Shown here piece by piece: positions 4,559 through 54,365 of a DNA stretch of 64,000 nt. Made by a program: the position numbers and the translations under genes. Under the pieces are notes generated by a model that had not been told where the DNA came from, did no database searches, and saw only the letters and a program-made list of their open reading frames with translations. Source of the DNA: Myxococcales bacterium (lineage in GTDB: Bacteria > Myxococcota > Myxococcia > Myxococcales > Myxococcaceae); assembly GCA_016191815.1 (NCBI GenBank), contig JACPVI010000070.1:1-64000 (forward strand), in the 5' to 3' direction. Every line of letters begins with the position of its first letter. The stretch's first letter is position 1.

Positions 4559-7303
4559 ATGAGAGGGGGCGCCTTCCGACTGCTGGCCTTGGCCGCCGCT
4601 TCGTTGCTGCCGCTTCTGGCAGCGGCCGATCCGGTGGACCTCTTGGAGTCCGACGTCCAGGCGTTCGTGCAGGACAACGGCGCGATGGACGTCATCCATC
4701 GCCTGGTTTTTCGAGACAACGAGGGCCGCTCCTCCATCAAGCGGATGGGTCAATTCTACGAGCCGGTGCACTTCACCCGCGGGACGCTGACCGGCCCGGA
4801 GGGAGTGAGGCAGGTGCAGGCCGCGGCGCTTGGAGACGGCTACTACGCCGTCCAGTTTTTGGGCGCGCCGACCAGGTCCGGCCGCGACTACACCCTGGAG
4901 CTGCACTTCCGGTGCAACCGGCGCTTCGCCGAGCCGACCTCGAGGGGCAAGGAGGAGCTGCTCGCGGTGTGGTTCAACCCGGTCCGCTGGACACTGCCGG
5001 TCCGCCGCTCGGTGGTGAAGCTGGTGCTCCCGCTCGAGCTGCCCAAGGAGGTAGTCCGGCACGAGGACATCACGCCCGCGATGGTCGACGGCTTCGGGGT
5101 GGAGACGGATGAAGGCAACCTGGGCGCGCAGGACAAGTGGGCCTTCGTCTACGCCGACTACCGGGGCGGGCGGCGGCTGACCCTCTACGCCGAGCGGCAC
5201 CAACTGGCGCGCCAGGACACGCACCTGGTCCGGGTGTACCTGCCGCGGTCGGCGATGCCCCGGCTTTCGTCCGGGAGCGACGTGGAGGCGAGCGGCGCGG
5301 CGGTGGAGGAGCGCCTCACCGCCGAGGGCCAGGCGGTGCTGGTCTCGGAGTCCTACGAGATCTTGGGCGACGGAAAGCCGGCGCCCGGCACGCCCGCGAC
5401 GCTCGGGCCGAGGGTGCGGGCCTCCTTCGGCTTCGAAGAAGAGGGAAGCCGCAATTTCGTTCCGGCGCCCAAGCTCGGAAGCTCGCTCCAGGCGGCCACC
5501 TGCGATGCCAAGGTGGCCGGCAAGGAGGTGGGGTGCGAGCTTCGCGCGGAGGCGATGGTGCTCTCCGAGCCGACGCGGAAGGGCCAGCCCTTCGAGGTGG
5601 TGTACGTCTCCAGGGTGCAGTGGGCGCCGCGCTCGAAGATCCGGGTCCAGCAGCGGACCGCCTTCGTCGAGCTTTCGATCGCGGGCGCGGACGCTTCGTT
5701 CGCTCCGCGCAATCGCCTGCGGCTGTCGCGATGGGAGTTCTCCACCGGGCTTCCGGCTCCGCCCGGAACCGCGGCCGGCCAGTTGCTCGGCGAAGAGGCC
5801 CGGCTTCCGGTGGTGCTCATCGATCCTCCGCGGCAGGAGGTGAGGGTGAGCGCGCGCGATCGGGACTGGGGCGGCGACCCATATCCGCCGGCCTACGACT
5901 ACCCGGCAGTCTCCAGCACGGATCCGGAATGCGTGCTGGCGTTCGAGCGGCGGGGCGCGCTGGATGAGCCGCTCCGCGCGAGGCTCTTGGTGCCCGCAGG
6001 CCCCTACGGAATCGAGGTGCCCGCGCTCGCGGTGGCCCATGTGCTCGCCTCGAGGGCCATCGCCGGCGAGCTGACCCGGCGGGACAAGAGCGACGCGGAG
6101 ACTCTCGCCAGGCGCTCCTTCTACTGGGCGGTGCTGCTGTTCATCTTCAACGGGCCGCTGTTGGTCTTCTGGCTCTTGTCGGTGGGCTGGGGGCTGGCGA
6201 TCATAGACAAGCTGGCCGGCACCCGCCTGTGCAAGGACGTCCTCCTGCCGGCGGGGAAGATCGTCTGGATCCACCCAACCCGCGGGACGGTGTTCGGCTG
6301 GACCGCGGCCTTGGTCCCATTCCGGCTGTCGTGGATTGTCCTCTCGGGCCTGCTCGCGGTGACGGTGCGCCTCTTGAGGCTTCACCCGTACCTTTCCCTG
6401 GTCCTCAAGAAGAAGGCGCCCGATTACGTCTCGCCGGAGATCCTGGTGGCCACCTTCCGGAAAGAGGGCTTCGTCCCCGAGCTTCCTCCGGAGGAAGCGG
6501 CGGTGCTGCTCGACCGGCCGATCAAGGCGATCAACCTGGTGGTGCTGGGGCTGTGCCAGAAGCGCGCGGTGGAGCTGTTGAGCCGCAACCCTCTCCAGCT
6601 CCGGGTGCTCGACCGCTCGCTGGCGTCCACCGCCGCGGAGAACGCCCTTTTCCGCGCGCTCACCAAGGAGGGCACGCTCCCTCGCGAGGGGGTGAGGGAG
6701 GTGCTCTCCGCGCTGAACCGGTCGCTGCAGCCGAAGATCTGGCGGGCCGATCACGAGGCCACCCTCGGCGCGCAGCGGAGGGCGGCAGAGAGCGCCTGGG
6801 CCGAACTGGACGCGCTCCCGCCGCCGCGGAGGGTGGCGTACTTCGACACGCACTACGCGCCGCTGTACCTGAGCGACCGCTTCTTCGCCGGCGTGGACCG
6901 GAGCTTTGCTCCCATCCCCACCAGCGCTCCGCTCGACTCGCCGCTCCACACCCTGGGCGCGAGCCGGGAAGTGGCCTCGGTCAGCGGGGCGGTGGGCAGG
7001 GTGCAAGAGCTGGCCGAGGGAGTGGTCGAATCGGTGGAGAGCGCCGCCAAGGCCACGGTGGACCGCCTGGAGGGGCTGTTCAACTTCGACGGGAAGGCTG
7101 CGTCGGCCCCGGCGCGTTCCGAGGCGGTTGCGGCGGGGCTGGCTGCGTCCATCTCCGCCGGCTACGACGCCTGTCACTCGGCGTGCCACTCGGCTTGCCA
7201 CTCGGCTTGCCATTCGGCCTGCCACTCCGCCTGCCACGACGCCTGCGCCTGCCACTCGGCATGCCATTCGGCCTGCGTCTCCTCATGCGCGGGGAGCTTC
7301 TGA
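4559..7303 (+). CDS. Large secreted/membrane protein (914 aa) with an N-terminal signal peptide, ~2-3 central TM helices and a C-terminal (Ala-Cys-His-Ser)n repeat tail. Candidate protein substrate of the downstream rSAM/SPASM maturase
   Basis: Signal peptide [25 protein letters not shown]. The hydrophobic block is [28 protein letters not shown]...[12 protein letters not shown]. The C-terminus is [48 protein letters not shown], encoded by a 12-bp tandem repeat. Its stop overlaps the start of the next gene (TGATG). Confidence 0.7.
7176..7292 (+). repeat. Coding 12-bp tandem repeat (gcctgccactcg-like, ~9 units) that specifies the (ACHS)n tail
   Basis: Direct inspection shows gcctgtcactcg gcgtgccactcg gcttgccactcg gcttgccattcg gcctgccactcc gcctgccacgac ... 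Confidence 0.85.
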
Positions 7304-8709
7304 TGCGCTCGGGCTGGAGCTTCGAGGCGATGGACTCCTTCGTCGCCGCCACCCGAACCGCGGTGTTCGTGCGCCGGGCCGACAGCGTGCTCTTCATCCG
7401 CCCGGAGAAGACGCTCGGCCTGAACGGTACGGCCGCCCTCATCCTCGAGGCGCTCTACAACCGCGAGGGCCGCCGCTCGGCGGAAGTCTTGGGAGCGCTC
7501 GCCACCAGACTGGGCGTTGGTTTGGACCGGCTGTGCTTGGACTGCTCGGAGCTTCTCGAGGCGGTGCGGGCGTTGATGCAGGGCGATTTCACCCCGCGCC
7601 CCACGCTTCGCTTCGGCGGCTTCGAGCGGAGCCGGATCCGCTTCCCCACCCTGGCGGAGATCGCGCTCACCTACGACTGCCAGAACCGCTGCACTTTCTG
7701 CTACGCGGCGAGCCCTCACCGCTCGGCCGATCGCCCGCTGATGACCACCGCCCAAGTGGTACGGGTGATGGAGAAGATCTTCCATCAGGCGCACGTGCCC
7801 TCGCTCAGCTTCACCGGCGGCGAGGCCACGCTCCGGCCGGACTTGGCCGAGCTGGTCGGCCAGGGCAAGCGCATCGGCTTCCGGATGAACCTCATCACCA
7901 ACGGCGTGCGGGCGGGGAACGACCGCTACGCTGGCACCCTGGTGGAGGCGGGCCTGGACTCGGCCCAGGTTTCGCTCGAGGCCGCTCAGGCGGAGCTGCA
8001 CGATTCGATGGTCGGCCGGCGCGGCGCCTTCGCCCGCACCGTCCTCGCGGTGAAGAACTTCAAGGCGCTCGGGATTCACGTGCACACCAACACCACGCTC
8101 TCCTCGCGGAACGTGGAGGCGGCGCCGGAGCTGATCCGCTTCGCCGGGGGGGAGCTGGGCCTTCGGACCTTGTCGATGAACCTGCTCATCCCAACCGGCT
8201 CGGGGCTGGACGCCGCTGCCGGGCCGCTCAGCTACTCCGCGCTGGCCGAACGGCTCCCCAGCCTCGCCGAGGTGGCCAAGGAGGAGGGAGTGAAGCTGGT
8301 GTGGTACTCGCCTTTGCCCTACTGCATCCTCAACCCGGTGGTGGAGGGGTTCGGCGCCAAGGCCTGCGCCTGCATCGACGGTCTCTTGTCGGTGGATCCG
8401 GCCGGCAGCGTGCTCCCCTGCTCGTCGTTTGCCGACGGCATCGGCTCGCTGTTGGAAAGCTCGTTCGAGGAGATTTACTCCAGCAAAGCAGCGAGGTACT
8501 GGCGCGAGAAGCGGTACGTGCCTCCGCCCTGCAAGTCGTGCGGCGACGTGGACCTCTGCGCCGGGGCCTGTCCGCTCTACTGGGACGCAGCGAAGGGCTT
8601 CGAGGAGCTTCCGGTGGCGGGCGCGGCCGACCGTGTGGAGCGGCGCCGGTGGGAGCAGGGGCGCGCCGATGGGGGAAGCTTCGGTGTCCGGCTTCCGGCG
8701 GGAGGATGA
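7303..8709 (+). CDS. Radical SAM / SPASM-domain peptide/protein maturase with an N-terminal PqqD-like RRE (sactisynthase/ranthisynthase-like architecture)
   Basis: The ATG at 7303 overlaps the upstream stop. The N-terminus DSFVAATRTAVFVRRADSVLFIRPEKTLGLNGTAALILEAL looks like PqqD/RRE. The CX3CX2C motif is YDCQNRCTFCY. The C-terminal Cys cluster CACIDG...CSSF...CKSCGDVDLCAGACP fits SPASM. The long N-terminal extension in the ORF track (6229..) is Pro/Arg/Gly-rich and I reject it. Confidence 0.8.
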   Translation: MRSGWSFEAMDSFVAATRTAVFVRRADSVLFIRPEKTLGLNGTAALILEALYNREGRRSAEVLGALATRLGVGLDRLCLDCSELLEAVRALMQGDFTPRPTLRFGGFERSRIRFPTLAEIALTYDCQNRCTFCYAASPHRSADRPLMTTAQVVRVMEKIFHQAHVPSLSFTGGEATLRPDLAELVGQGKRIGFRMNLITNGVRAGNDRYAGTLVEAGLDSAQVSLEAAQAELHDSMVGRRGAFARTVLAVKNFKALGIHVHTNTTLSSRNVEAAPELIRFAGGELGLRTLSMNLLIPTGSGLDAAAGPLSYSALAERLPSLAEVAKEEGVKLVWYSPLPYCILNPVVEGFGAKACACIDGLLSVDPAGSVLPCSSFADGIGSLLESSFEEIYSSKAARYWREKRYVPPPCKSCGDVDLCAGACPLYWDAAKGFEELPVAGAADRVERRRWEQGRADGGSFGVRLPAGG

Positions 8710-8710
8710 G

Positions 8711-9955
8711 ATGGGAAGCCTGGGCGAGTTCGCCGCCTACCTGGAGGGCCGCATCGGCACGGTGGAGAAGGCCGAGGCGGGGTTGCTCGCGCTGCAGCAG
8801 AAGTACGAGACCTTCTTCCAGGAGGTCTCCCGGGTGCGCGAGGAGGAGTTGGCCCAGCTCACCGCGCACGTTGTTTCGCAGAAGGGGAAGCTGCCGGGGT
8901 GGCTGGAGAAGGCCATCGGCGAAGCGCGGGCGGCAGTGGAGCAAGAGTACGACCGGAAGCTGGCCCTGCTCAGGCTCGAGCACCAACGGGTGGTGGAGAG
9001 TGCGGAAGGAGTGAGGCAGAGCTCGCGGAAGCTGGAGCAGGAGCTGCGCGCGCAGAATTCCGAGCTGGACGCGGAGGAGGAACAGCTCAAGGCCCGGAAC
9101 CAGGCGCTGCTCGCGCGCATCGAGGAGTACAACCGGCGGATCCGCGCGCTGGGGAGCGGCTTCGGCTTCTTCTCCAACCTCTTCAAGATGCGCCAACTGG
9201 AGCAGGAGCGGCGCGCGCTGGACCGGGAGCACGCCGACCTTTCCGCCCGAATCGAGACCCTCCGCGCGCAGTGGGCGTCGGCCGCGGGAGAATCGGTCGC
9301 CGCCGAGGGCGACCTCCAGACGCGGTGGAAGCGCCTGCAGGACGAGGCGGCGGCGATGCAGGTGAAGGTGGAGCACCTCGAGACCAGCCGGCCGCGGATC
9401 GCCCTCCGCAGCACCATGGAGCGGGTGCTCTTCACGGTGACCAGGGGGCACGAGGAGCCCGGCCCGGGCGATCCACCTTGCCCGCGGTGCAAGGCGCGCA
9501 ACCGGCCCGCGCAGCACTTCTGCCACGCCTGCGCGATCAGGCTTTCCGGCGACCGGCCGGACCTGGAAGGGAGCCTTCCGGAGATCGCCGAGCTGAACCA
9601 GCACTTCCTGCGCTTCTCCGAGGGGATGAAGGGATGCCAGGAGATCATCGGGCTGGTGCGGGGGCTGCGTTCCGGCCTGCAGAGCTTCATCAAGAGCGTG
9701 GAGAGCATGCGGGACACCGAGCGCCGCCACCCGGTCTCGGCGCTGCGCATCGAGGTGCCCCAGGAGAGCATCCAGTACGGGAAGAACTTGGACGCGCTCT
9801 TCGAGCTGTCGAAGCAGGACCTCTCGCTGCACCCGCAGCCGTTCGCGACGCAAGTCCGGCGGCTCGTCGAGCAGGTGTTCGGCGAGGCCCAGCTCAAGGG
9901 TTACTTCGAGAGGATGGGGCAGGAGCTTTCGACGCAGGCGAACGCGCAGTGGTAG
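8711..9955 (+). CDS. Coiled-coil protein with an internal zinc-ribbon (CPRCKARNRPAQHFCHACAI); likely an accessory protein of the rSAM operon
   Basis: ATG at 8711 is 2 bp after the rSAM stop. The protein is ~415 aa with a long heptad-rich region (EQELRAQNSELDAEEEQLKARNQALLARIEEYN...) and a CxxC...CxxC motif. Confidence 0.55.
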   Translation: MGSLGEFAAYLEGRIGTVEKAEAGLLALQQKYETFFQEVSRVREEELAQLTAHVVSQKGKLPGWLEKAIGEARAAVEQEYDRKLALLRLEHQRVVESAEGVRQSSRKLEQELRAQNSELDAEEEQLKARNQALLARIEEYNRRIRALGSGFGFFSNLFKMRQLEQERRALDREHADLSARIETLRAQWASAAGESVAAEGDLQTRWKRLQDEAAAMQVKVEHLETSRPRIALRSTMERVLFTVTRGHEEPGPGDPPCPRCKARNRPAQHFCHACAIRLSGDRPDLEGSLPEIAELNQHFLRFSEGMKGCQEIIGLVRGLRSGLQSFIKSVESMRDTERRHPVSALRIEVPQESIQYGKNLDALFELSKQDLSLHPQPFATQVRRLVEQVFGEAQLKGYFERMGQELSTQANAQW

Positions 9956-9969
9956 CGGAGGGCTCTTTG

Positions 9970-10503
9970 ATGAAGCGCACCGGCGCGGTTCTCCTCTTGG
10001 CGGCGGGTGTGCCCCTGATGCTCCTCGGCCTCTTGTTCCTGGTGGGCGCTGGCGGGCAGGTGCGCCGCTACGCCATCGGGGCGGCCTGCACTGCCTTGGG
10101 CGCGGTGTTTGCCGGGCTGGGGCTTAGGGCGTGGCGCAGGGCGGAGTCGGAGTCGCCGGAGCGGCTCCGCTCGGAGGTGCTCGAGCTGGCCAAGCGGAGG
10201 AACGGGGAAATCTCGGAGGCCGACCTGTTGGCCGGCCTTGGGGAGAAGGCGGAGAAAGCGGCGCCGGTGCTGCGGGCGCTGGAGGAGGAGGGCCAGTGCC
10301 GGCGGGAGCGTAGGGAAGGGCAGGTGCACCTGGTCTTCCCGGGGCTACTGCCTCGGGTGCACGTGCGGAGGTGCGAATACTGCGCGGCGGAGCTGCCGCT
10401 GGCGGAGGAAGTCGCCAAGTGCCCGCGGTGCGGCGGCAGCGTGAAGACCGGAGTGGAGCGCCGCTCGCTCGGCGGGGCCGACGCCTATCGGATGGACGAA
10501 TGA
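9970..10503 (+). CDS. Small membrane protein with a C-terminal zinc-ribbon (CEYCAAEL...CPRCGG); fourth gene of the operon
   Basis: N-terminus MKRTGAVLLLAAGVPLMLLGLLFLVGAGG has two TM helices. C-terminus is RRCEYCAAELPLAEEVAKCPRCGGSV. Confidence 0.5.
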   Translation: MKRTGAVLLLAAGVPLMLLGLLFLVGAGGQVRRYAIGAACTALGAVFAGLGLRAWRRAESESPERLRSEVLELAKRRNGEISEADLLAGLGEKAEKAAPVLRALEEEGQCRRERREGQVHLVFPGLLPRVHVRRCEYCAAELPLAEEVAKCPRCGGSVKTGVERRSLGGADAYRMDE

Positions 10504-10512
10504 TCGCGCGCC

Positions 10513-10839
10513 TCACGGCGCGAACATCTCGGCCAGCACCGACAGCACCAAGCCAGCAGTCGCGGCATCGAGCTTGCCCAGGCGACGCTCCAGCCGGGTC
10601 TTGTCGACGGTCCGGATCTGGTCAAGGACGATCTGTCGAAGCTTGCCCTGGAAGCGCACCGAAACCCGGGTCGGGTAGCTGCGGCTCTTGGTCGTCAGCG
10701 GCGCCACGATGACCGTCGCGATGTGCCGGTTCATCTCATCAGGGGATACCACCAGGCAGGGCCGGGTCTTGCGCATCTCGCTGCCCTGGGTGGGGTCGAG
10801 ACGAACAAGGTAAACCTCGAAGCGGGCTACCACTCCCAT
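10513..10839 (-). CDS. mazF: MazF/PemK-family endoribonuclease toxin
   Basis: 108 aa. GVVARFEVYLVRLDPTQGSEMRKTRPCLVVSPDEMN is typical of the PemK/MazF fold. The start overlaps the upstream antitoxin. Confidence 0.8.
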   Translation of the reverse strand: MGVVARFEVYLVRLDPTQGSEMRKTRPCLVVSPDEMNRHIATVIVAPLTTKSRSYPTRVSVRFQGKLRQIVLDQIRTVDKTRLERRLGKLDAATAGLVLSVLAEMFAP

Positions 10840-11081
10840 TCAGCGCGCTCCCAGTCGCTTCGCGGCAGCGCCTCGCGATCCAGCAGCCGATCGTCGCGCC
10901 TTTCGGCCATGCGCTGGAAAGCTTCGTCCCAGCCCTTCCGGGCCTTGGAGACCGGCAGGATCACGATTTGGCCGCGCCGGACCTTCAACTCGACCTCGCC
11001 CACCAGCCCACACTCATCGAGGACGGTCTTCGGCAATCGGATTCCTCGCGAGTTGCCGATGCGGATGATGCTTGCCCTCAT
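10827..11081 (-). CDS. mazE: MazE/AbrB-type (SpoVT_AbrB) antitoxin
   Basis: 84 aa. MRASIIRIGNSRGIRLPKTVLDECGL matches the AbrB/MazE swapped-hairpin motif. It overlaps mazF by 13 bp. Confidence 0.75.
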   Translation of the reverse strand: MRASIIRIGNSRGIRLPKTVLDECGLVGEVELKVRRGQIVILPVSKARKGWDEAFQRMAERRDDRLLDREALPRSDWERAEWEW

Positions 11082-11169: not shown

Positions 11170-11553
11170 CTAGCGCTTCCCTGGGCCCGGCCAGCGCCCC
11201 TCCGCCTCGAGGCGGCGGCGCAAGGGAGGGTTCTCGTCCAGGTAGGCCGAGAGCGACTCGTCGGTGATCCACACCTCCACGTCCTCGCTCCCCACCCGCG
11301 CCTGGCAGCCCAGCCTCGAGCTCGGCCTCACGTCGAAGGCCTGGTCCAGCCGGTCCAGCTCCGCGTCCTCCTGCTCCGAGAGCGAAGAGAGGCCGCTCTT
11401 CACCCACACGTGACAGGTGGAGCACGCGCACACCCCGCCGCAGGCGTGCCCCAGCTTCGCGCCGCACAGCTCCGCCGCCTCCAGCAAGGTGGTGCCCTCC
11501 GGCACCTCCACCTCGACATCGTCGAGCGGGCTCTTGAAGCGGACCTTTGGCAA
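11170..11553 (-). CDS. fdx: [2Fe-2S] ferredoxin, ISC-type (adrenodoxin-like)
   Basis: Cys ligand pattern CGGVCACSTCHV...C, with isc operon context. Confidence 0.8.
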   Translation of the reverse strand: MPKVRFKSPLDDVEVEVPEGTTLLEAAELCGAKLGHACGGVCACSTCHVWVKSGLSSLSEQEDAELDRLDQAFDVRPSSRLGCQARVGSEDVEVWITDESLSAYLDENPPLRRRLEAEGRWPGPGKR

Positions 11554-11556
11554 GAA

Positions 11557-13401
11557 TCAGTACTCCTCGACCGAATGCCCCGCCACCGCGTTCCGGAGCG
11601 CGCGGTTCATCACCCGCTCCACGAAGGGCCGGCAGGCCTCGTCCAGCGCACGGATGGCCTCCTGGATGCGCAGGTGCTCCGTGGCGCTTCGTCGCTCCTC
11701 CTCCAGGCGCGCGAAGGCCGTGTCGATCGCCGCGCGCTCGCCGTCGGAGAGCAGGTCGGCATTCTCGCGAAGCTGCTTCCCCGCGTCCTTGAGCACCCGC
11801 TCGGCCTCCACCTGCTGCTCGCGGAGCAGCCGCCGCTTCACGTCCCCCTCGGCGTTCTCGATCGAGTCGAGCAGCATCTGCTCGATCTCCTCGTCGGAAA
11901 GCCCGTGGCTCGGCCGGACGGTGATCTCTTGGCTGGCCCCGGTGGTCAGCTCCTTCGCGGCTACCGAGAGGATGCCGTCCGCGTCCACCTGGTACTTCAC
12001 CTCCACCCTGCCGAGCCCGGCGGACATGGGAGGGATGCCGGTCAGCCGGAAGCGCGCCAGCGAGCGGCAATCCTCCACCATCTCCCGCTCTCCTTGCACC
12101 ACGTGCACGTCCATTCCGGTCTGCCCGTCCTGGAAAGTGGTGAACACTTGAGCCGCTGCGGTGGGGATGGTCGAGTTGCGCGGGATCAGCCGCTCCACCA
12201 GCCCACCCATCGTCTCCACCCCGAGCGAGAGCGGGAGAACGTCCAGCAGGAGCACCTCGTCCTGCCGCTCCTGGCTGGTGAGCAGGTCCGCCTGGGCCGC
12301 CGCCCCCAGCGCCACCACCTGGTCGGGGTCGATGTCTCGCAGAGCCTCCCTCCCGAACAGCGAGGAGACGAACCTCCGCACCGCCGGCACCCTGGTGGAA
12401 CCGCCCACCAGCACCACCCCGTCGATCTCCGCCGGCCGAAGCCCCGCGTCCTTGAGCGCGCGCTTGCAGGCCACTCCGGTCTTCTGGATGAGCGGGGCGA
12501 TCCACGCCTCGAACTCCACCCGCGCTACCGCGCGCGCCCGACCGGAGACCGACACCTCGGCCAGCTCGCAGGCGGACAGCTCCTCCTTGGCGCGGCGCGC
12601 CGCCGAGAGCGCCTCCGCCACTTGAGCAGGAGAGGGATGGCCGATTCCCAGCGCCTCCAGCACCCGGTGGGCGATCACCCGGTCGAAGTCGTCGCCGCCC
12701 AGGGCCGAGTCGCCGCCGGTGGACTTCACCTCGAAGATGCCGTCCAAAAGCTTGAGGATGGAGATGTCGAAGGTGCCCCCGCCGAGGTCGTACACCGCGA
12801 AGGTGCCCTGGCTGCCTTTGTCCAGGCCGTAGGCCAGTGCCGCCGCGGTGGGCTCGTTGAGCAGGCGCAGCACCGTAAGCCCCGCCAGCCGGCCGGCATC
12901 CTTGGTGGCCTGGCGCTGCGCGTCGTCGAAGTAGGCCGGGACGGTGATCACCGCCTGCTCCACCCGGCCAGAGAAGTAGGCCTCCGCTTGCCGCTTGAGG
13001 GCGCGGAGGATCTCTCCCGACACCTCGATCGGCGTCACCGGCTGGCCCCCGGAGACCTCGAAGCGCACCACGCTCTTGCTCTCGGCGAACCGGTAGCAGC
13101 CGAGCTTCTGGGTCTCCGGATCGCCGGCGCTCTTCCCCATGAAGCGCTTCACCGAGCGGATGGTGTCGGTGGGGTGCGCGAAGGAGAGCGCGGACGCCCG
13201 CCGGCCCACCAGCACGCTCCCGTCGTTCGCGTAGTGCACCACCGAGGGCAAGAGCGGCTCTCCGCCCTCGTCCGCCGGCAGGCAGCGAGGCTTTCCCTGG
13301 ATCACCGCCGCGACCAGCGAATTGGTCGTCCCGAGGTCGATGCCCACCGCGCTCCCCTTCGGCTTCAAGGGGTCGTGGATCTGCAAGAGGCCGCCGCTCA
13401 C
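11557..13401 (-). CDS. hscA: Fe-S cluster assembly chaperone HscA (Hsp70 family)
   Basis: 614 aa with an Hsp70 ATPase N-terminus ([13 protein letters not shown]...) and isc operon position. Confidence 0.85.
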
Positions 13402-13928
13402 TCCAGCGCCTCCTCCTCGATCTGGTCCACTTCCTCTAGAAAACGGCTGAAGTAGCGGACCTTCGCCAACAGCCCTGCGGCCCGATCGATCGCCGCCCGA
13501 TCGGCAGGGGCGGTTGCAAGCGCCGAGGCCGCCTGATCCAGCAAGGCCTGCCTCTCCGCCTTCACCTCGGCGCCCATCCGCCTGACCTCCTCGAGGGCAG
13601 CCGACCTCCGCGCCGCGTCCAGCTCCTCATGGAGCGAGAGGATCCGCTCCAAGAACTCCGGGGGCAGGCCACTGCCCGCTCGCTCGTCATGCTCGAGGTC
13701 CACTCCGGCCAAGCAGAGCAAGTAGCAGGCGCGCCGCTCCGGATCCTTGAGCACCCGGTAGGCGTCGTTGAGGGCGGTGGTGCGCTCCACCGCGGCTCTC
13801 CGCGCCGCGCCGTCGCCTCGGGCCCGGTCGGGGTGCAGCTCGAGGGAAAGCTCGCGGTAGCGCCGCTCGAGGGCGTCGAGGTCGAGGTGGAACGAGGGCG
13901 GCAGCCCGAAGACTTCGAAGTGGCTCAC
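13398..13928 (-). CDS. hscB: Co-chaperone HscB (J-domain)
   Basis: GTG start gives [35 protein letters not shown], which has a J-domain HPD motif. The ORF-track extension to 14135 overlaps iscA and I reject it. Confidence 0.7.
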
Positions 13929-13939
13929 GAAAGGCCCGC

Positions 13940-14299
13940 TCAAACGGTGAAGCTCTCCCCGCAGCCGCAGGAGCCCTTCACGTTCGGGTTGTGCAGCTTG
14001 AAGCCCGAGGCCATCAGGCCTTCCTCGTACAGAAGCTCGGTGCCGGCGAGGTAGAGGTAGCTCTTCGGATCCACGAACACCCGGACTCCGTCGCGCTCGA
14101 ACACCTTGTCGCGCTCCTTGGGGGCCTCCGCCCACTCCATCTGGTAGGCGAGCCCGGAGCAGCCGCCTCCCCGGACGGCGATCCGGAGGCCGGCTTGCGG
14201 GGTATGCCGCTCCTCGAGGAGCTTCTTGAGCCGCTTGACGGCGCTCTCGCCGATCGCCACCCCGGATTTGGCAGAGCTCTGGAGCTGTGGTTCGGTCAC
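13940..14299 (-). CDS. iscA: Fe-S cluster insertion protein IscA (HesB family)
   Basis: The C-terminal GSCGCGESFTV motif and ~119 aa length fit IscA. The extended ORF-track entry (13940..16156) is rejected. Confidence 0.75.
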   Translation of the reverse strand: MTEPQLQSSAKSGVAIGESAVKRLKKLLEERHTPQAGLRIAVRGGGCSGLAYQMEWAEAPKERDKVFERDGVRVFVDPKSYLYLAGTELLYEEGLMASGFKLHNPNVKGSCGCGESFTV

Positions 14300-14307
14300 C
14301 TGGTCAC

Positions 14308-14736
14308 CTACTTCCCGGAGGCCTGCGCCTCGGCGTCCTCTCTCGCGGCCAGCTTCTCCGCCCGCTTGCGCTTGAAGTCGGCGATCGCGGCCTTGATCGC
14401 GTCCTCGGCCAAGACCGAGCAGTGGATCTTCACCGGGGGAAGCGACAGCTCGCGGGCGATCTCCTTGTTGGTGATGGAGGTGGCCTGCTCGATGGACTTC
14501 CCCTTCACCCACTCGGTGACCAAGGAACTGGAGGCGATCGCCGAGCCGCAGCCGAAGGTCTTGAACCTGGCGTCCTCGATGATCCCCTCGTCGGAGATCT
14601 TGAGCTGCAGGCGCATCACGTCTCCGCAGGCGGGGGCGCCGACCAGGCCGGTGCCCACGCTGGAGTCGGCCTTGTCCAGGGTGCCCACGTTCCTCGGGTT
14701 CTCGTAGTGGTCGATCACCTTGTCGCTGTACGCCAT
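14308..14736 (-). CDS. iscU: Fe-S cluster scaffold IscU
   Basis: MAYSDKVIDHYENPRNVG...GAPACGDVMRLQ...FKTFGCGSAIASSS are near-canonical IscU motifs. Confidence 0.9.
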   Translation of the reverse strand: MAYSDKVIDHYENPRNVGTLDKADSSVGTGLVGAPACGDVMRLQLKISDEGIIEDARFKTFGCGSAIASSSLVTEWVKGKSIEQATSITNKEIARELSLPPVKIHCSVLAEDAIKAAIADFKRKRAEKLAAREDAEAQASGK

Positions 14737-14754
14737 CTGCCGCTCCGATTCCTT

Positions 14755-16095
14755 CTAGTGGGCGTTCCAGGCCACCTGCTTCAAGTCCACTCCCTCCTTG
14801 GCCATCTCGTAGAGGGGGCTCATCTCGCGAAGCTTCTTCACCTTCTCCACCACCAGATGCGCCACGTAGTCGATCTCCTCCTCGGTGTTGAACCTCCCGA
14901 TGCCGAAGCGGATGGAGCTGTGCGCCAGCTCCTCGTCGACGCCGAGGGCGCGGAGCACGTAGGAGGGCTCCAGCGAGGCCGAGGTGCAGGCCGACCCGGA
15001 GGAGACCGCCACGTCCTTGATCGCCATCATCAAGGCCTCGCCCTCCACGAAGGCGAAGGAGACATTCAGGTTTCCCGGCAGCCGGTGCTCGAGCGAGCCG
15101 TTCACCGAGAGCATGTCCAACCCGGAGAAGAGCGCTGTCCGCAGCCGCTCGCGCAGCGCCATCACTCGCTCCGACTCCTCTCTTCCCTCGAGCCGGGCCA
15201 GCTCGGCGGCCTTGCCGAAGCCGACGATCGACGCCACCGGCAGGGTGCCCGAGCGCATGCCCCGCTCGTGGCCGCCTCCGTCGATGAGCGGCGCGATGCG
15301 CACCCGAGGCTTCCTCCGCACGTAGAGCGCGCCGATCCCCTTCGGCCCGTACATCTTGTGGGCGCTGATGGAGACCAGGTCCGCGCAGGCCTCCTCCACC
15401 TGGAAGGGGACCTTCCCCAGGCCCTGCACCGCGTCGCAGTGGAACAAGACTCCCTTCTCGCGGCAGAGCCGGCCAATCTCGTTCACCGGCTGGACCACGC
15501 CGATCTCGTTGTTGGCCAGCATGATCGACACCAGCACCGTGCGCTCGGTGAGCGCCGAGCGGAGCTCGTCGAGGTCCACCCTGCCGTCGCGGCCTACCCC
15601 GAGGTAGGTGACCTGCGCCCCCGCCGACACCTTGGAGAGCCAGCCCCGGAAGACCGAATCTTGCTCGGCCAGCTTCTCCGCCTTCACCTCCGGGCCGCCG
15701 ACCTCCGCGAGCCTGAGCTGCCGGAGCTCTTCGAGCCGGTCCTGCCGCGCGCGCTCCACGCGCTTGCAGGTGTCCAGCACCGCCTTGTGCTCGGTCTTGC
15801 AGGTGACGAGGTGGTCTCCCTTGCTCCGGGAGAACTCCACCGCGCCCTTGATGGCCAGGTTGTCCGACTCGGTGGCTCCGCTGGTGAAGACAATCTCCTT
15901 CTCCGAGGCGCCGATCAGCGCCGCCACCTGCTTTCTGGCCAGCTCCACCGCGGCCTCCGCCCTCCACCCGAAGGAGTGGCTGCGGGAGGCGGCGTTGCCG
16001 AAATCCTCCTTGAGGTACGGCAGCATCGCCTCCAGGACTCGCGGGTCCATCGGCGTGGTGGCGTGATTGTCCAGGTAGATCGGAAGCTTCAACAT
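14755..16095 (-). CDS. iscS: Cysteine desulfurase IscS/NifS (PLP-dependent)
   Basis: Start [24 protein letters not shown]. Motifs [11 protein letters not shown] and SSGSACTS are present. The gene carries an internal insertion relative to E. coli IscS. Confidence 0.85.
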
Positions 16096-16387
16096 CCCTC
16101 GAACCCGTGGGCGGCATACCACATCCGCCCACCGAAAGTGGACCAGACTGGTCCATTATTGTGGTCGGAGGCTTCGGCGATCAAGCGAGCCTGAGGTGCC
16201 GCGGCGGCGAACCGTCTGGCAACGAGCACTCGGACAGTGAGGCTGCCCAGCGATCCGGCCTGGAGCAGCCAGCCTCGATCGCCCGCTCCGCAACGGAGCA
16301 GGCGAGAGCCGCAACGGCGCGAATTCCGGGGAGGTCTCGCCGGCCCGTGGAGTGCAACTCGCCTGCTCGGACAGCCGAGGAGAAACC

Positions 16388-17968: not shown

Positions 17969-19375
17969 ATGCGCCGGAAGATCCTCCTCCTGGCCCTCGG
18001 CCTGGCAGCCGCGGTGGCGTTGGTGCCAACCCTGATTCCGGCGGGTCCCGACGCTTCCCTGGACGCGGCGGGCTTTCTGGAGAGCGGCCGTTTCCTGGTG
18101 GCCGCTGGCGTCATTTTCGTCGGCGGCCTGCTCACCTCGCTCACTCCTTGTGTCTACCCGCTGATTCCGATCACCGTGAGCGTGTTCGGCGCCCGGAACG
18201 CGGAGAGTCGGCTCAAGGCGGTGGCGCTCACCTCGGCCTACGTGGGAGGGATGGGGGTGGTGTTCTCGGTGCTCGGGGTGGCGGCGGCGCTGACGGGAAA
18301 GGCTTTCGGAACGGCGCTGGGGAACCCCTGGGTGGTGAGCGGGCTGGCGCTGTTCCTGCTCGTCTTGGCCAGCTCGATGTTCGGCGCCTTCGAGCTGGCG
18401 GTGCCCTCTGGGCTGGCGGCGAGGTTGAACCGGGTGGGAGGCAGTGGCCTCTTGGGTGCGCTGCTCATGGGGAGTGTGGCGGGTGTCATCGCCGCCCCGT
18501 GCACCGGGCCGGTCCTGGCGAGCGTGCTCGCGTACGTGGCGAAGTCGCAGAGCGCGGCCTTGGGCGGTGGGCTCCTCTTCGTCTACGCGCTGGGCATCGG
18601 AGTGCCGTTCTTCCTCCTCGGGGCTTTCACGGTGCGGCTGCCCAAGGCCGGGGTGTGGATGGAGTGGGTGAAGAGCGTGTTCGGGATCGCGCTGGTGGCG
18701 CTCGCCTTCTCTTACTCGCGCGACGCGTTTCCGGCGGCGCGATCGGCCGCGGGTGCGGCGGCCGACGAGGTGGGGCGGCTGGCCGGGGTTTCGCTCGCCA
18801 CGGCGCTCACCTTCGGAGGCATCGCGATCGGGGCGATCCACCGTTCCTTCAAGGAGGGCGGCCGGGAGATTCTCCTCAAGGGCGCGGGGGTGGCGGTGGT
18901 GGTGCTGGCGCTATTGCTCCGCTCCGGGGCCTCCGGAGCCCCCGCCTACGGCGGGCTGGCGGTGCGGATGGGCTGGGCGGCGGACGTGGACCGGGGCGTG
19001 AGGTGGCACCTGCACTTCCCGTCGGCTTTGGCGTCGGAGACGGCGCACTTCGACGACGCGCTGTCGCGGGCGAAGGGCGAGCGGCGGCCGGTGATGATCG
19101 ACTTCTTCGCCGACTGGTGCGAGGCCTGCAAGGAGCTGGACCGGCACGTCTACACCGAGGACGCGGTGGCGGCCGAGGCGGGGCGCTTCCTGAACATCAA
19201 GGTGGACGCCACGAACGTGGACGAGCCCATCGAGGCGCTGTTCGAGCGCTTCGAGGTGCAGGGTCTGCCCACGGTGGCCTTCATCGACTCGAACGGAGAG
19301 CTGCTGGAGGATCCGCGGGTGACCGGCTTTCTCCCGGCGGAGAAGTTCCTCGGGCAGCTCCGCAAGGTGCGCTGA
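17969..19375 (+). CDS. dsbD: Thiol:disulfide interchange protein DsbD-like (CcdA-type TM domain + C-terminal thioredoxin)
   Basis: The TM Cys pair is TPCVYP ... APCTGP. The C-terminal thioredoxin motif is FFADWCEACKELD. Confidence 0.8.
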   Translation: MRRKILLLALGLAAAVALVPTLIPAGPDASLDAAGFLESGRFLVAAGVIFVGGLLTSLTPCVYPLIPITVSVFGARNAESRLKAVALTSAYVGGMGVVFSVLGVAAALTGKAFGTALGNPWVVSGLALFLLVLASSMFGAFELAVPSGLAARLNRVGGSGLLGALLMGSVAGVIAAPCTGPVLASVLAYVAKSQSAALGGGLLFVYALGIGVPFFLLGAFTVRLPKAGVWMEWVKSVFGIALVALAFSYSRDAFPAARSAAGAAADEVGRLAGVSLATALTFGGIAIGAIHRSFKEGGREILLKGAGVAVVVLALLLRSGASGAPAYGGLAVRMGWAADVDRGVRWHLHFPSALASETAHFDDALSRAKGERRPVMIDFFADWCEACKELDRHVYTEDAVAAEAGRFLNIKVDATNVDEPIEALFERFEVQGLPTVAFIDSNGELLEDPRVTGFLPAEKFLGQLRKVR

Positions 19376-39433: not shown

Positions 39434-41155
39434 ATGAGTCAGCGCGTCCTTCATCTCGTGATTGTTTTGGGGCTCCTCCCCGGCGCCGCCCTGGCGGCCG
39501 ATGGGCGGTACATGGTGAAGTTTGCCGATGCCGCACAGGGGAAGGCGGCGGTGTTCGCGGCCGGAGGGAAGATTGCCCTCGAGCTGGGCCCTCAGAGGGT
39601 GGCGGCGGTCTACCTTCCCGCCTCGGCGGTCGCGGCGCTGGAGAAGAGCCCGCATGTCGAGTACGTGGAGGATGATCCGCGGCGCTTCCCCTCGGCGCAG
39701 TCAGTGCCCTACGGCATCGACATGGTGCAGGCGCCGCTGGCCTGGCCGCTGGCCACCGGCGTCAATCGCACGGTGTGCGTGATCGACTCCGGCTTCTACG
39801 TCGGGCATCAGGATCTCCAGAGCGCCGGAGTCTCCGGGTACCCGGCCGGCTGGGACAAGGACGGCTGCGGCCACGGCTCCCACGTCTCGGGCACCATCGC
39901 CGCCCTCAACAACGCGGACGGCGTGGTGGGAGTGTTGCCGAACGGGGTGAACCTCCACATGGTGAAGGTGTTCGGCGACGACTGCAGCTGGACCTACTCC
40001 TCGGGCCTGGTGGACGCGCTCAACCGCTGCCGCTCCGCCGGCGCCAACGTGGTGAGCATGAGCCTGGGCGGCAGCTTCAAGAGCATCACCGAGCAGCGCG
40101 CCTTCAACGATGCCTACGCGGCCGGGGTGCTCTCCGTCGCCGCCGCCGGCAACGGCGGCAACACCACCTTCAGCTACCCGGCCTCCTACTCGTCGGTCAT
40201 CTCGGTGGCGGCGGTCGACTCGGCCAAGCAACACGCTTCCTTCTCGCAGCGGAACAGCCAGGTGGAGCTGGCGGCGCCCGGCGTGGCGGTGCTCTCCACC
40301 GTGCCCTGGCTCGAGTCCAACTCCCTCACCGTCGACGGGGCGAGCTACCAGGCCAACTACGTGGACGGCGCGGCGCGGACCGCGGGTGTCTTGGGCGCGC
40401 TGGTCGACGGCGGCCTGTGCGACTCGGTCGGCTCCTTCGCTGGCGCGGTGGTGCTCTGCCAGAGAGGAACCATCAGCTTCCTCGACAAGGTGAAGAACGT
40501 CCAGGCCGGAGGCGGCGCGGCGGCGGTCATCTACAACAACGCCCCGGGCAACTTCTTCGGCACCCTGGGCACCGGCAACACCAGCGCCATCCCGGCGATC
40601 AGCCTGAGCCAGGAGGACGGCCAATTCCTGGTCTCCCAGAAGCTCGGCCTCTCGGGCACGGTAGTGAGCCTGCTCAGCAAGCCCGCCAGCGGCTACGAGG
40701 CATGGGACGGCACCTCCATGGCCACTCCGCACGTCTCCGGAGTCGCCGCGCTGGTGTGGAGCTACAACTCCGCCTGGACCAACGAGCAGATCCGCAAGGC
40801 GCTGCAGGCCACCGCGGAGGACTTAGGGGACGCCGGCAAGGACAACTCCTTCGGCTACGGGCTGGTGCAAGCCAAGGCCGCCCTCGATTACCTCATCAAC
40901 TCCTCCGGCGGGAGCGGCGGCTTCTCGCTCAATGCGGTCGGCTACAAGTCGAAGGGCCAGGCCAAAGTGGACCTCTCCTGGTCCGGCGCAGCCTCTGCGA
41001 GCGTGGACGTCTACCGGAACGGCTCGCTCGTCGCCACCACCGCCAACGACGGGGCGCACACCGACTCGCTGGGAAGGGTGACGGGGACGTTCACTTACAA
41101 GCTCTGCGAAGCTGGCACCGCCACCTGCTCGAACGAGTCCACCGTCACCTTCTAG
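39434..41155 (+). CDS. Secreted subtilisin-family (S8) serine protease with an inserted PA domain
   Basis: Catalytic triad contexts are VCVIDSGF, HGSHVSGTIAA and GTSMATPHVSG. PA-like insert is GGLCDSV...VVLCQRGTISF. Confidence 0.85.
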   Translation: MSQRVLHLVIVLGLLPGAALAADGRYMVKFADAAQGKAAVFAAGGKIALELGPQRVAAVYLPASAVAALEKSPHVEYVEDDPRRFPSAQSVPYGIDMVQAPLAWPLATGVNRTVCVIDSGFYVGHQDLQSAGVSGYPAGWDKDGCGHGSHVSGTIAALNNADGVVGVLPNGVNLHMVKVFGDDCSWTYSSGLVDALNRCRSAGANVVSMSLGGSFKSITEQRAFNDAYAAGVLSVAAAGNGGNTTFSYPASYSSVISVAAVDSAKQHASFSQRNSQVELAAPGVAVLSTVPWLESNSLTVDGASYQANYVDGAARTAGVLGALVDGGLCDSVGSFAGAVVLCQRGTISFLDKVKNVQAGGGAAAVIYNNAPGNFFGTLGTGNTSAIPAISLSQEDGQFLVSQKLGLSGTVVSLLSKPASGYEAWDGTSMATPHVSGVAALVWSYNSAWTNEQIRKALQATAEDLGDAGKDNSFGYGLVQAKAALDYLINSSGGSGGFSLNAVGYKSKGQAKVDLSWSGAASASVDVYRNGSLVATTANDGAHTDSLGRVTGTFTYKLCEAGTATCSNESTVTF

Positions 41156-41966
41156 AAACACTGGCGGCCAGCTCGAGCTGGCGCCGCCACTGGCCGTAGG
41201 CCCGCCCTCGGCCCGCCAGGCTCAGCAGATGCTTTCGGACCGGCTCCAGGCTTCCTCGTGGCGCGCTCCGCCAGGCGGTGCCCGGGAGCGGCATGAAGGC
41301 GTGCGCATGCACCCGCGCCCCAAGCTCGGTGAGCCTTCCCACGAGCGTGAGCGTGGCCCGGACGTCCTCGGGCGTTTCCCCCGGAAGGCCGAAGATGAAG
41401 TCCACGTTGGGCACGAAGCCGGCCTCGGCCGACAGCCGCACCGCGCGCTCCACCGACTCGGCGTCGTGCCCCCGGTGGCACTCGCGGAGGAGGCGGTCCG
41501 AGCCGGACTGCCCGCCGATGATCAGGTTGTCGTTGTCCACGTAGCGGCGGATGACGGCCAGGGCCTCGGCGGTGACCTGCTCGGGGCGAAGCTCCGAGGG
41601 GAAGGTGCCGAAGAAGACGCGGCCGGACGGGCCGATCTCCTCCCTTGAAGCGGCGAGCAGTTCCTCGACCGCCGCGAGGTGCACCGAGCCGTCGGAAGAG
41701 CCGTAGGAGAGCGCGCTCGGGGTGATGAAGCGCACGTCGCGGAGCTTCGCCTTGCGGATCTGTCGCACCCACCTTCGTACCTCCGGCACGGAGCGGTGGC
41801 GAAAGCACGCGCGATGCAGGGACGGAGTCTGGCAGAACCGGCAGGCCCAGATGCAGCCGCGGGTCAGCTCGATCGGGCCGAACATCCGCTGCCGCACCGA
41901 GAAGGGAGGAAAGTCGTCCAGCTCGATCGGCTCGGCTCGCCCCTGGCTCGAGAGCTTCCCTTCCAC
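41145..41966 (-). CDS. Radical SAM domain protein (CX3CX2C = CIWACRFC), small (~273 aa)
   Basis: ELTRGCIWACRFCQTP and a downstream glycine-rich motif FFGTFPSE. Confidence 0.6.
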   Translation of the reverse strand: MEGKLSSQGRAEPIELDDFPPFSVRQRMFGPIELTRGCIWACRFCQTPSLHRACFRHRSVPEVRRWVRQIRKAKLRDVRFITPSALSYGSSDGSVHLAAVEELLAASREEIGPSGRVFFGTFPSELRPEQVTAEALAVIRRYVDNDNLIIGGQSGSDRLLRECHRGHDAESVERAVRLSAEAGFVPNVDFIFGLPGETPEDVRATLTLVGRLTELGARVHAHAFMPLPGTAWRSAPRGSLEPVRKHLLSLAGRGRAYGQWRRQLELAASVSRR

Positions 41967-53015: not shown

Positions 53016-54365
53016 TCACAACCCCAGGGGTAGCTGCGGCGGCGAGCACGCTCTGGGCAGCGGCGGCGGTCCGGCAGGCAGGCCCAGGTGCGCCAGCACG
53101 GCGTGACACGCGGCGCGCGAGGTGACGACGGCCAGCACGCGCCGCCGCCCTCCGCAGCGGCACGTCATGATGTCCACGGCCCACGTCCGATGCAGCAGCG
53201 TTGCCCAGTCGAGCCGCGGTCGCCTGGGCAGCTCCCGCTTGGGCGCGGCGCCGAGCGGGGCGTTCCCCACCCCAGGCGGCAGCGGCGGCGGGGCCGGCTT
53301 CGGCACCACCTGCGCGCGGGCCTTCGCATTCGGCGCCAGCACGCCGTGAAACCGCAGGAGGTGCTTCCTTTCCTGAGGCAGCACCGCTCCCGCTCTGCGC
53401 AAAAGCTGCAGCGGCGTCAGCACCAGCGCCGTCGCGCCCGAGCGCAGCGGCCGCTTCAGCGCGTACTCGTACCGTCCGTCATCCCGCCGGGTGAGGCGCT
53501 CCTCGCACAGCGGCCCCCGCGCCCCGTACCGCGCCAGCCGCTCGAGCCCGTCCCTGTCGCGCGCCTGCACCGCGGTGCCCGCGTGCAGCGAGAACCCGTC
53601 CACCACCGCCTGGTGGGCACGCGGCCGCCGCGGCAGAGGCTCCACGGCCAGGGCCAGCCGCTCCTGCAGCCCATACCACTGCAGCGCCTCCATCGAGTCC
53701 TCCTCCGGCCGCTCGACCTCCTGCGGCGCCAGCACGCCCGCCGCCTCGAGCCGCCGCGTCACCCGCCTCACCACCCGCTCCAGCACCTTCGTCACCTCCT
53801 CGTCCGAGGGCGGCGGCACCGCCACGAAGGCGCAGCCCGGGCCCGCGAAGACGCCGTCCGGTACCAGCACGTGGAAGTGCGGATGCGGTTGCAGCGCCCC
53901 GCTGAAGAGCTGCAGCATCGACACCGCCCCACACTCCAGCGTCCCCATCGCCCCCTGCCGCCGCGCGCGGCGCCGCTGCCAGGCGAAAGTCGCGCGGAGC
54001 AGCTCGCGCAGGCACAGCGATAGCGATGGCCCGTCGCGCAGCAGCAGCCACCGCAGCCGCCACGGGAAGGCCAGCGTCCACTGGCGAATGGGCACCTCGG
54101 GCAGCACCGCGTCCACCAGCTGCGCCGCCGCGTCGTGCGGCATCACCGCCAACGTGGCGGTGCTGGGCTTCACCGACACCGAGCGGCTGCGCGAGCGAAT
54201 CGCCGGCAGCGACGAGGCCCGCGAGCGGCTGGTGGACGCCAGCGCCCTCAAGCGCCTCACCACCCCCGAGGAGGCCGCCGACGTGGTGGCCTTCCTCTGC
54301 TCCGAGCGCGCCTCGGCCATCACCGGCGCGGTGGTGGACGTGACCGGCGGAGCCCATCTGGGCAA
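53016..54365 (-). mobile_element. IS91-family (HUH/Y2 rolling-circle, ISCR-like) transposase gene; the N-terminal zinc-binding region appears missing or degenerate
   Basis: VPIRQWTLAFPWRLRWLL; the HUH block is QPHPHFHVLVPDGVF. The C-terminal zinc-finger tail CRCGGRRRVLAVVTSRAACHAVLAHLGLP is characteristic of IS91/ISCR transposases. The first ~70 residues are low complexity. Confidence 0.65.

Follow-up and report, generated by a model that had tools for sequence, protein, structure and literature searches.

Introduction

Enzymes that join a recognition element for peptides that are made on ribosomes and modified after translation (RiPPs), known as the RiPP recognition element (RRE), to a radical S-adenosylmethionine (SAM) domain and a SPASM domain have been investigated almost exclusively for their part in producing small secreted peptides. 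SkfB, CteB, AlbA, PapB, NxxcB, GggB and QmpB all have this architecture together with an adjacent Cys-rich substrate. NxxcB, for example, joins the C-beta of Asn to the S of Cys within an N-x-x-C motif; links of a similar kind are formed by GggB and QmpB (PMC11851443). Here we describe a four-gene cassette (g1 to g4) from a Myxococcales bacterium, located on contig JACPVI010000070.1 within a window of 64 kb (the whole stretch of DNA that was analysed; 69% GC). In this cassette an enzyme of the same architecture, g2, is encoded directly downstream of g1, a large membrane protein whose C-terminal tail is a Cys-rich repeat and, we propose, the substrate of g2.

Several described systems resemble this pair in part. 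The maturases of sactipeptides and ranthipeptides act on short leader-core substrates that are cleaved and exported, whereas here the candidate is the tail of a membrane protein and neither a protease nor an exporter is present. The candidate substrates are 590-1050 amino acids (aa) long, in contrast to the RiPP natural-product layout of a short precursor from which the leader is removed. In the QhpD/QhpC system and in anSME, a radical SAM/SPASM enzyme modifies Cys of a protein that stays a functional protein, and anSME is among the best structural matches of g2. Nevertheless, the targets of QhpD and anSME are one small subunit or a single C-x-P/A-x-R site, without a repeat array or a membrane carrier, and anSME is devoid of an RRE. 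The ACGX system (TIGR04340), which pairs a radical SAM/SPASM enzyme with a repeat, takes its name from four residues that start with Ala-Cys; g2 itself matches TIGR04340 with E 2.3e-21, at 76 bits versus a cut-off of 400.

The nearest precedent for the tail is the family TIGR04117 ('Syntroph_Cxxx', 'Cys-Xaa-Xaa-Xaa repeat radical SAM target protein') with its Pfam counterpart PF27846 ('tSAM_targ_Cxxx_rpt'), both of which are, as far as we found, computational predictions without published biochemistry. The g1 tail has the same layout, with Cys at each fourth residue near the C-terminus and an adjoining radical SAM/SPASM gene. The TIGR04117 profile, however, describes a small protein of 98 positions, whereas here the carrier is a membrane protein of 590-1050 aa and the unit is [H/Y]-x-A-C. 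Membership of g1 in TIGR04117 was rejected: the cut-off is 50 bits, whereas its tail reaches 12.0 bits (E 0.17) and those of its relatives 12-16 bits. Weak precomputed PF27846 matches exist on the distant relatives P0134, P0131 and P0136 (see below), and none is recorded for the close homologues of g1.

An earlier sequence-only reading of this DNA did not recognise the combination as a described system. This stands in so far as full-text literature searches found no paper on a cassette of tail protein and radical SAM enzyme and the existing models are not reached; the idea of a Cxxx-repeat target, on the other hand, precedes it in TIGR04117 and PF27846. The concept of a Cxxx-repeat target and the modification of proteins by QhpD and anSME therefore provide precedents for the g1/g2 system. 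What is unusual is a large conserved integral membrane protein as the target. The pairing of tail and radical SAM enzyme spans several phyla and hundreds of metagenome contigs, on a carrier of 600-1000 aa. Were the tail modified in place, the reach of RiPP chemistry would include the maturation of whole proteins, with a new repeat-based modification of about ten [H/Y]-x-A-C units that may have a metal or redox function. As the enzyme and its candidate substrate are both well defined, the proposal lends itself to a direct test.

Results

Organization of the four-gene cassette

All four genes lie on the forward strand: g1 (4559-7303, 914 aa), predicted to be the substrate, encodes the membrane protein with the repeat tail; g2 (7303-8709, 468 aa) the RRE - radical SAM - SPASM maturase; g3 (8711-9955, 414 aa) a cytoplasmic protein with a coiled coil and a zinc ribbon; and g4 (9970-10503, 177 aa) a protein with two membrane helices and a zinc ribbon. 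The stop codon of g1 (TGA, 7301-7303) shares one base with the start codon of g2 (ATG, 7303-7305), a single base pair lies between the g2 stop and the g3 start, and 14 bp separate the g3 stop at 9955 from g4. With gaps of -1, 1 and 14 bp, the cassette has no space for a short precursor gene. The sequence-only reading had seen four co-directional, tightly coupled genes with a TGATG overlap and gaps of 1 and 14 bp, all of which is correct. Its description of g1 as a 914-aa protein with a signal peptide, a membrane region and a C-terminal Cys-repeat tail likewise agrees with the sequence and its translation.

We considered whether g1 could be an antisense or chance open reading frame (ORF) and rejected this, as its GC content at third codon positions is 0.90 on the forward strand and its homologues are conserved in the same frame; both features identify the forward strand as the coding strand. 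A protein 100% identical to g2 has been recorded from a 'Myxococcales bacterium' metagenome-assembled genome (MAG). The likely ribosome-binding site of g2, GGGGAG (7291-7296), is situated inside g1 codons 911-914 (Ala-Gly-Ser-Phe). Across 18 loci the DNA of these last four codons, GCGGGGAGCTTC, is almost invariant and the adjoining codons vary synonymously, which suggests that conservation of the terminal 'AGSF' may be partly due to translational coupling.

The repeat tail is conserved as protein

The tail (residues 868-914, positions 7160-7300) begins G-YDAC-(HSAC)5 and contains 11 Cys and 8 His in 47 residues. It had been put forward as the only Cys-rich repeat available as a substrate, and it is indeed the sole run of four or more consecutive Cxxx units, (Cxxx)≥4, in all six frames of the window. 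The repeat units of g1 differ from each other in DNA by synonymous codons, and so the tail does not result from a recent DNA duplication or an artefact. More specifically, recent tandem duplication and assembly error were both ruled out by synonymous differences between units and across the 18 loci.

Homologues share about 50% identity over the body of g1 but have nearly invariant tails, and every complete g1 homologue carries the tail. Within the last 22 codons of g1, the 18 loci differ by 7.96 synonymous versus 0.95 non-synonymous codon differences per pair. By this measure the tail is under strong purifying selection and is selected as protein.

The repeat unit was delimited from 59 distinct tails. 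The segments between successive Cys are mostly HSA (376 instances), followed by HDA (70), VHDA (28), VHSA (9) and rarer others, and YDA precedes the first Cys in 35 of the 59 tails. Insertions occur almost always directly after Cys: in about 45 of the 53 segments with at least four residues, H-x-A is kept before the next Cys. From this position of the insertions and the retention of H-x-A, the selected unit is read as [His/Tyr]-x-Ala-Cys, and not as Ala-Cys-His-x.

Linkage of the tail protein to the radical SAM enzyme

Word-index searches with g1 yielded 5-6 homologues, and scans of genomes and metagenomes recovered a large family: the cassette recurs in about 28 genome or metagenome loci and homologues of g1 are found in more than 90. 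Among the 17 loci found through g1 (three contigs with g1 homologues and 14 loci of species-representative genomes), the order g1-g2-g3-g4 is kept in all, where the contig allows it to be read. The taxa include Myxococcota, with Haliangium and Polyangiaceae, Thermoanaerobaculia/Acidobacteriota and Riflebacteria. Flanking genes differ among the 17 loci and only the four gene families of the cassette recur.

Linkage was also assessed starting from the enzyme. For three of three radical SAM homologues picked regardless of g1, a tail protein of 673-954 aa ends at the start of the radical SAM gene. A metagenome scan with the radical SAM alignment returned 455 relatives, of which the best 80 loci were examined; 71 of them had enough upstream DNA, and tails were called by a loose repeat criterion combined with ORF inspection. 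The tail gene ends at the radical SAM start in 58 of the 71 testable loci. It lies directly upstream in 33 of 34 loci of the group with at least 58% identity and in 25 of 37 loci of the group with 43-49% identity. Six loci of the latter group (L069, L070, L074, L076, L084 and L097) have the permuted order g4-g2-g3-g1, and the tail of this sub-lineage begins ...ACYSACVEHDACHSACVHDAC... Among the remaining metagenome loci, three contigs are too short to judge, and in L071 the radical SAM gene is N-terminally truncated.

A conventional short precursor beside the radical SAM gene was looked for and none was seen in the window or in about 100 loci; instead, the radical SAM homologues adjoin the large tail-bearing protein across loci, in agreement with what the sequence-only reading had proposed for this pair. 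Comparison of neighbours in more than 90 loci revealed no conserved protease or transporter near the cassette.

Architecture of the g2 enzyme

The sequence-only reading had assigned g2 the architecture of a sactipeptide or ranthipeptide synthase and had suggested a search of 7303-8709 with the Pfam Radical_SAM, SPASM and PqqD models. Two of these matches are above cut-off: Radical_SAM (PF04055; E 3.9e-23, 82.9 versus 29.5 bits) and SPASM (PF13186; E 1.7e-7, 31.9 versus 21.5 bits), the latter joined by the SPASM model TIGR04085 (40.1 versus 27 bits). The PqqD match of g2 itself is below its cut-off. All 35 members of the g2 family match Radical_SAM and SPASM, and 25 of these 35 also match PqqD, with a best E of 1.6e-5; g2 also has a weak match (E 0.0088) to the PqqD chaperone model of lasso peptides.

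The AlphaFold model of g2, built from a 35-sequence alignment, has a predicted local distance difference test score (pLDDT) of 83.7 and a predicted template modelling score (pTM) of 0.86. Its N-terminal region adopts the fold of an RRE: residues 21-92 form strands at 21-24, 29-32 and 36-39 and helices at 42-51, 59-70 and 74-92, with pLDDT 77-94. The RRE that had been suggested from the sequence alone is thus backed by this fold of three strands and three helices and by the PqqD matches of 25 homologues, and it is delimited as a PqqD-like winged helix at residues 7-92 (7321-7578). A Foldseek search with the g2 model has SkfB at the top and whole-chain alignments with SuiB and CteB, followed by anSME, PqqE and TigE; a sequence-profile search against solved structures gives the same picture.

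The radical SAM motif C126-x3-C130-x2-C133 (7678-7701) is invariant in the alignments. The SPASM region (8323-8571), in which a QhpD-family match is also found, contains seven invariant Cys (C341, C355, C373, C410, C413, C419 and C423) spaced as C355-x12-G368-x4-C373 and C410-x2-C413-x5-C419-x3-C423, with C341 as an additional one. The three radical SAM and seven SPASM Cys remain invariant down to relatives with 33-37% identity.

We compared g2 with the named maturase families in NCBIfam (PqqE, MftC, ACGX, HxsC, StsB, SkfB, PapB, SCIFF and others). It is below the equivalog cut-off in all 25 NCBIfam matches listed, where cut-offs are at least 180 bits and the best match, PqqE, reaches 105 versus 381 bits. 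Placement in a named radical SAM maturase family was rejected on these scores, which are far below cut-off, and likewise for the radical SAM enzyme of a distant relative. By its domain architecture, g2 is classed as an RRE-containing radical SAM/SPASM maturase of the RiPP type.

A wider family of tail proteins

With the last 107 residues of g1 as query, exhaustive searching identified distant relatives, all annotated 'hypothetical' and all from MAGs or metagenomes. These proteins carry a signal peptide and a DUF2207-like outer domain; their one membrane helix has Lys/Arg after it, and their tail is of the form (ACH[SD])n-ACVSGGxx. Their cytoplasmic domain is homologous to residues 622-740 of g1 (P0134 residues 324-443; 27% identity, E 6e-23), and the sequence layout of these single-helix relatives places their tail domain unambiguously on the cytoplasmic side. 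Distant tail proteins P0134, P0131, P0150, P0137 and P0143 adjoin a radical SAM gene of the g2 family. In all readable contexts this neighbour shares 35-47% identity with g2 along the entire chain, RRE included. The third gene of the distant three-gene cassettes encodes a four-helix membrane protein unrelated to g3 or g4, and no homology of g3 or g4 to it was found. As the third gene differs, the conserved core consists of the tail protein and the radical SAM enzyme.

Cys repeats of related form were observed in other proteins as well. In an ocean metagenome, L022 (366-1055 and 3-359) and L023 encode two paralogous small proteins that end in C[H/Y]xx repeats (...CHSACHGSRGWR), and P0136, which is of this type, has an N-terminal signal-like segment. 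The two radical SAM/SPASM genes beside them are not related to g2, with 20% identity, and are below NCBIfam cut-offs. From these sequences, L022/L023 looks like an independent radical SAM system with a similar Cys-His repeat target. In addition, P0135 (493 aa) carries long runs of (Cys-Tyr-Asp-Ser)n, in which the period is again four residues but with Tyr.

Domains and membrane topology of g1

Library scans revealed no Pfam or NCBIfam match for g1. Its signal peptide (residues 1-24, ...LLAAA/DP; 4559-4630) was recognised from the sequence, with a hydropathy peak at residues 3-29 and a model helix at 4-16. The outer domain (4631-6058) comprises a beta-sandwich at residues 25-230 and a second beta domain at about 259-374, with a linker to about residue 500. 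An AlphaFold model of g1 built from an alignment of six sequences has an overall pLDDT of 59.7 and is poor outside the folded domains; pLDDT is 72-89 across residues 26-230. With this model, Foldseek matches the outer domain to ribophorin I/Ost1 (E 3e-10 to 1e-7) and to the N-terminal domain of M1 aminopeptidases. DUF2207 (PF09972) has no match in g1 at E <= 0.1, and its match in the relative P0129 reaches E 4.6e-5, at 24.1 versus a cut-off of 24.4 bits. In overall plan, DUF2207 proteins and ribophorin I/Ost1 resemble g1, with a signal peptide, a beta-sandwich outer domain, one or more membrane helices and a cytoplasmic C-terminus. The His-x-Ala-Cys tail and the linked radical SAM gene are features of g1 that are absent from DUF2207 as described.

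Homologues of g1 occur in long (about 910-1050 aa) and short (about 590-710 aa) forms, which the alignment places inside one clade. The two differ by the whole second beta domain of the outer part (residues about 245-500; 5290-6058 in the window), as observed by comparing L001, L002, L009-L013 and L015.

The membrane region (6116-6382) consists of two hydrophobic segments of about 30 aa each, at residues 520-553 and 583-608, with a conserved HPT-G loop between them; R589, W592, H609 and P610 are invariant in the alignment. Hydropathy and charge counts show each segment to be followed by a stretch rich in Lys/Arg. In the single-helix relatives, Lys/Arg come right after the helix and the C-terminal domain is homologous to that of g1, and we therefore place the g1 tail in the cytoplasm. 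This inferred location, which also draws on the positive-inside rule, would give g1 one true membrane crossing and a second segment that is re-entrant or peripheral. The cytoplasmic type of the zinc ribbons in g3 and g4 was counted in its favour.

Beyond the membrane, a conserved and presumably cytoplasmic domain (residues about 620-800; 6416-6958) is modelled with pLDDT 72-91 and is common to the single-helix relatives. It is followed by an amphipathic segment (residues about 815-845; 7001-7093) with the pattern ...FAEGVV.S.E....TVDR.E.LFNFDG, located about 25-35 residues before the tail and conserved in clades A and B, that is, in both four-gene clades. On this pattern of conservation, the segment is a reasonable candidate for the docking site of the g2 RRE.

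A proposed model for maturation of the tail in place

We propose that the locus is a self-contained four-gene maturation cassette in which g2 crosslinks the cytoplasmic tail of g1 in place, and we put the probability of this reading at about 0.6. In this model, g1 would expose its ribophorin-I/DUF2207-like domain outward and hold its C-terminal domain and [His/Tyr]-x-Ala-Cys tail toward the cytoplasm. Translation of g2 would be coupled to that of g1, and the enzyme would dock through its RRE on the C-terminal region of g1 and work along about ten repeat units in turn. At each unit, 5'-deoxyadenosyl radical chemistry would create a covalent crosslink involving Cys. The likeliest product would be a within-unit thioether ring from Cys (i+3) to His/Tyr (i), or a sactionine-type link from Cys to the backbone. 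With no protease or exporter linked to the cassette, the modified tail is expected to remain on g1, perhaps as a rigid module derived from Cys and His that binds metal or is redox-active; g3 and the membrane-anchored g4 would be cytoplasmic partners. The tail as substrate, its fate and the thioether chemistry are all parts that we infer, the last by analogy with SkfB, CteB, PapB and NxxcB. More tentatively, a ladder of about ten within-unit His/Tyr-Cys rings could form a permanent, encoded, cofactor-like module for metal or redox chemistry in the cytoplasmic tail; we think this specific form possible but rather doubtful. If true, such a ladder would establish a new class of post-translational changes to proteins, and RRE-guided radical SAM chemistry would for the first time be seen on a full-length membrane protein.

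A number of observations weigh against maturation of the tail by g2. The residue after His varies (S, D, T, N or A) and Ala does not readily give up a hydrogen from its C-beta, so that the acceptor atom is uncertain. A plain metal-binding helix would likewise show His-x-x-Cys repeats. The PqqD match of g2 itself is weak (E 0.017, 15.9 bits versus a Pfam cut-off of 23.4). Furthermore, the two hydrophobic segments of g1 both appear as helices in the AlphaFold model (507-553 and 581-606), at low confidence; a double crossing of the membrane would leave the tail outside the cell, beyond the reach of g2. Finally, three loci (L106, L110 and L111) have the order rSAM-g3-g4 (rSAM being the radical SAM gene) with no g1 within 5 kb, and linkage is accordingly not absolute; this lineage may carry its substrate gene at a separate site. 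In L110, a 490-aa ORF is present on the opposite strand between the radical SAM gene and g3.

A different use of such a tail would be as an array of Cys/His ligands for metal or Fe-S clusters, left unmodified and serving as a sensor, store or cluster carrier, with g2 acting on another substrate or using the tail merely as a partner for clusters or electrons. The composition (11 Cys and 8 His in 47 residues, with a variable and polar intervening position) fits such a role, and His and Cys at i and i+3 of a helix make a chelating pair; a helix is what the model draws for the tail, at low confidence. We nevertheless regard this as unlikely, given that RREs recognise peptides and are typical of maturases whose substrate is the product of an adjacent gene, and that no other conserved candidate substrate is found nearby. 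The pairing of tail and radical SAM enzyme also persists down to 35% identity and with different accessory genes, and an unrelated radical SAM/SPASM pair adjoins proteins with C[H/Y]xx-repeat tails too. A dense haem wire, in which overlapping C-x3-C-H motifs would bind c-type haem, is far harder to defend, even though CHSACH can be read as CX3CH, two Cys and two His are available per eight residues, and one locus (L027/L028) is located beside cytochrome genes. Insertions disrupt the CX3CH spacing yet preserve H-x-A-C, the homologous domain of the single-helix relatives is cytoplasmic while attachment of haem c takes place outside the cytoplasm, and the linked enzyme is a radical SAM protein of the RiPP type, with no haem-attachment genes linked. 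We give this reading hardly any weight.

Modification by g2 could also be followed by release, g1 being a giant precursor whose modified tail is cut off as a RiPP and whose body acts as a membrane-bound leader or scaffold. The end of g1 has a layout reminiscent of leader and core, with a conserved segment, a variable linker rich in Ala/Gly and a repeat core, and large leader domains occur in other RiPP classes. Such an outcome is improbable, as more than 90 loci show no conserved protease or exporter within or beside the cassette, and a body of 600-1000 aa that is itself conserved, outer domain included, is hard to explain for a disposable leader.

Partner genes and genomic neighbourhood

The sequence-only reading had suggested that the third and fourth genes, each with a CxxC ribbon pair, could be partners of the first two. 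Both are conserved in the cassette across loci, and the ribbons are present (CPRC...CHAC in g3 and CEYC...CPRC in g4). In g3, a coiled coil at residues of about 20-235 precedes the zinc ribbon (C257, C260, C271 and C274, all invariant; 9479-9532) and a conserved C-terminal domain ending in QW; its library matches, in PADLOC and NCBIfam, are of the coiled-coil type only. In g4, membrane helices within residues 3-52 are followed by a winged-helix-like domain at about 60-130, which matches the winged helix of SNF8 weakly (E 0.0015), and by a zinc ribbon with four invariant Cys (C135, C138, C151 and C154; 10372-10431). No solved structures related by sequence to g1, g3 or g4 were found beyond weak zinc-ribbon and winged-helix matches. 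A role of the cassette in anti-phage defence was considered and set aside, PADLOC giving only generic matches to radical SAM (viperin models) and coiled-coil (JetC, LmuB) proteins.

The surroundings of the cassette vary between loci. In one lineage only (L003, L024 and L025), a radical SAM gene of the lipoyl-synthase type is directly upstream of g1 and an iron-dependent repressor is encoded a few genes downstream of g4. In L027, of Polyangiaceae type, a 442-aa Cys-rich repeat protein (8661-9989) takes the place of g4 and is followed by genes for cytochrome b and multihaem cytochromes.

In the window itself, a MazF/MazE toxin-antitoxin pair (10513-11081, reverse strand) comes right after g4 on the converging strand. 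Next to it on the same strand are ISC genes for Fe-S assembly (11170-16122), encoding a ferredoxin, an HscA-like protein of the Hsp70 family, IscU (NifU_N) and an IscS-like class-V aminotransferase. The MazF/MazE and ISC neighbourhood is not conserved at other cassette loci. Neither tRNA genes nor Rfam matches occur in the 64-kb window. Positions 17969-19375 (forward strand) encode a thioredoxin-domain protein, a DsbD-like thiol-disulfide transporter, and 53016-54365 (reverse strand) a Y2-type transposase. A second radical SAM protein of 273 aa, unrelated to g2, is encoded at 41145-41966 on the reverse strand, where it overlaps the end of a converging gene for a subtilase/PA-domain protease (39434-41155, forward strand).

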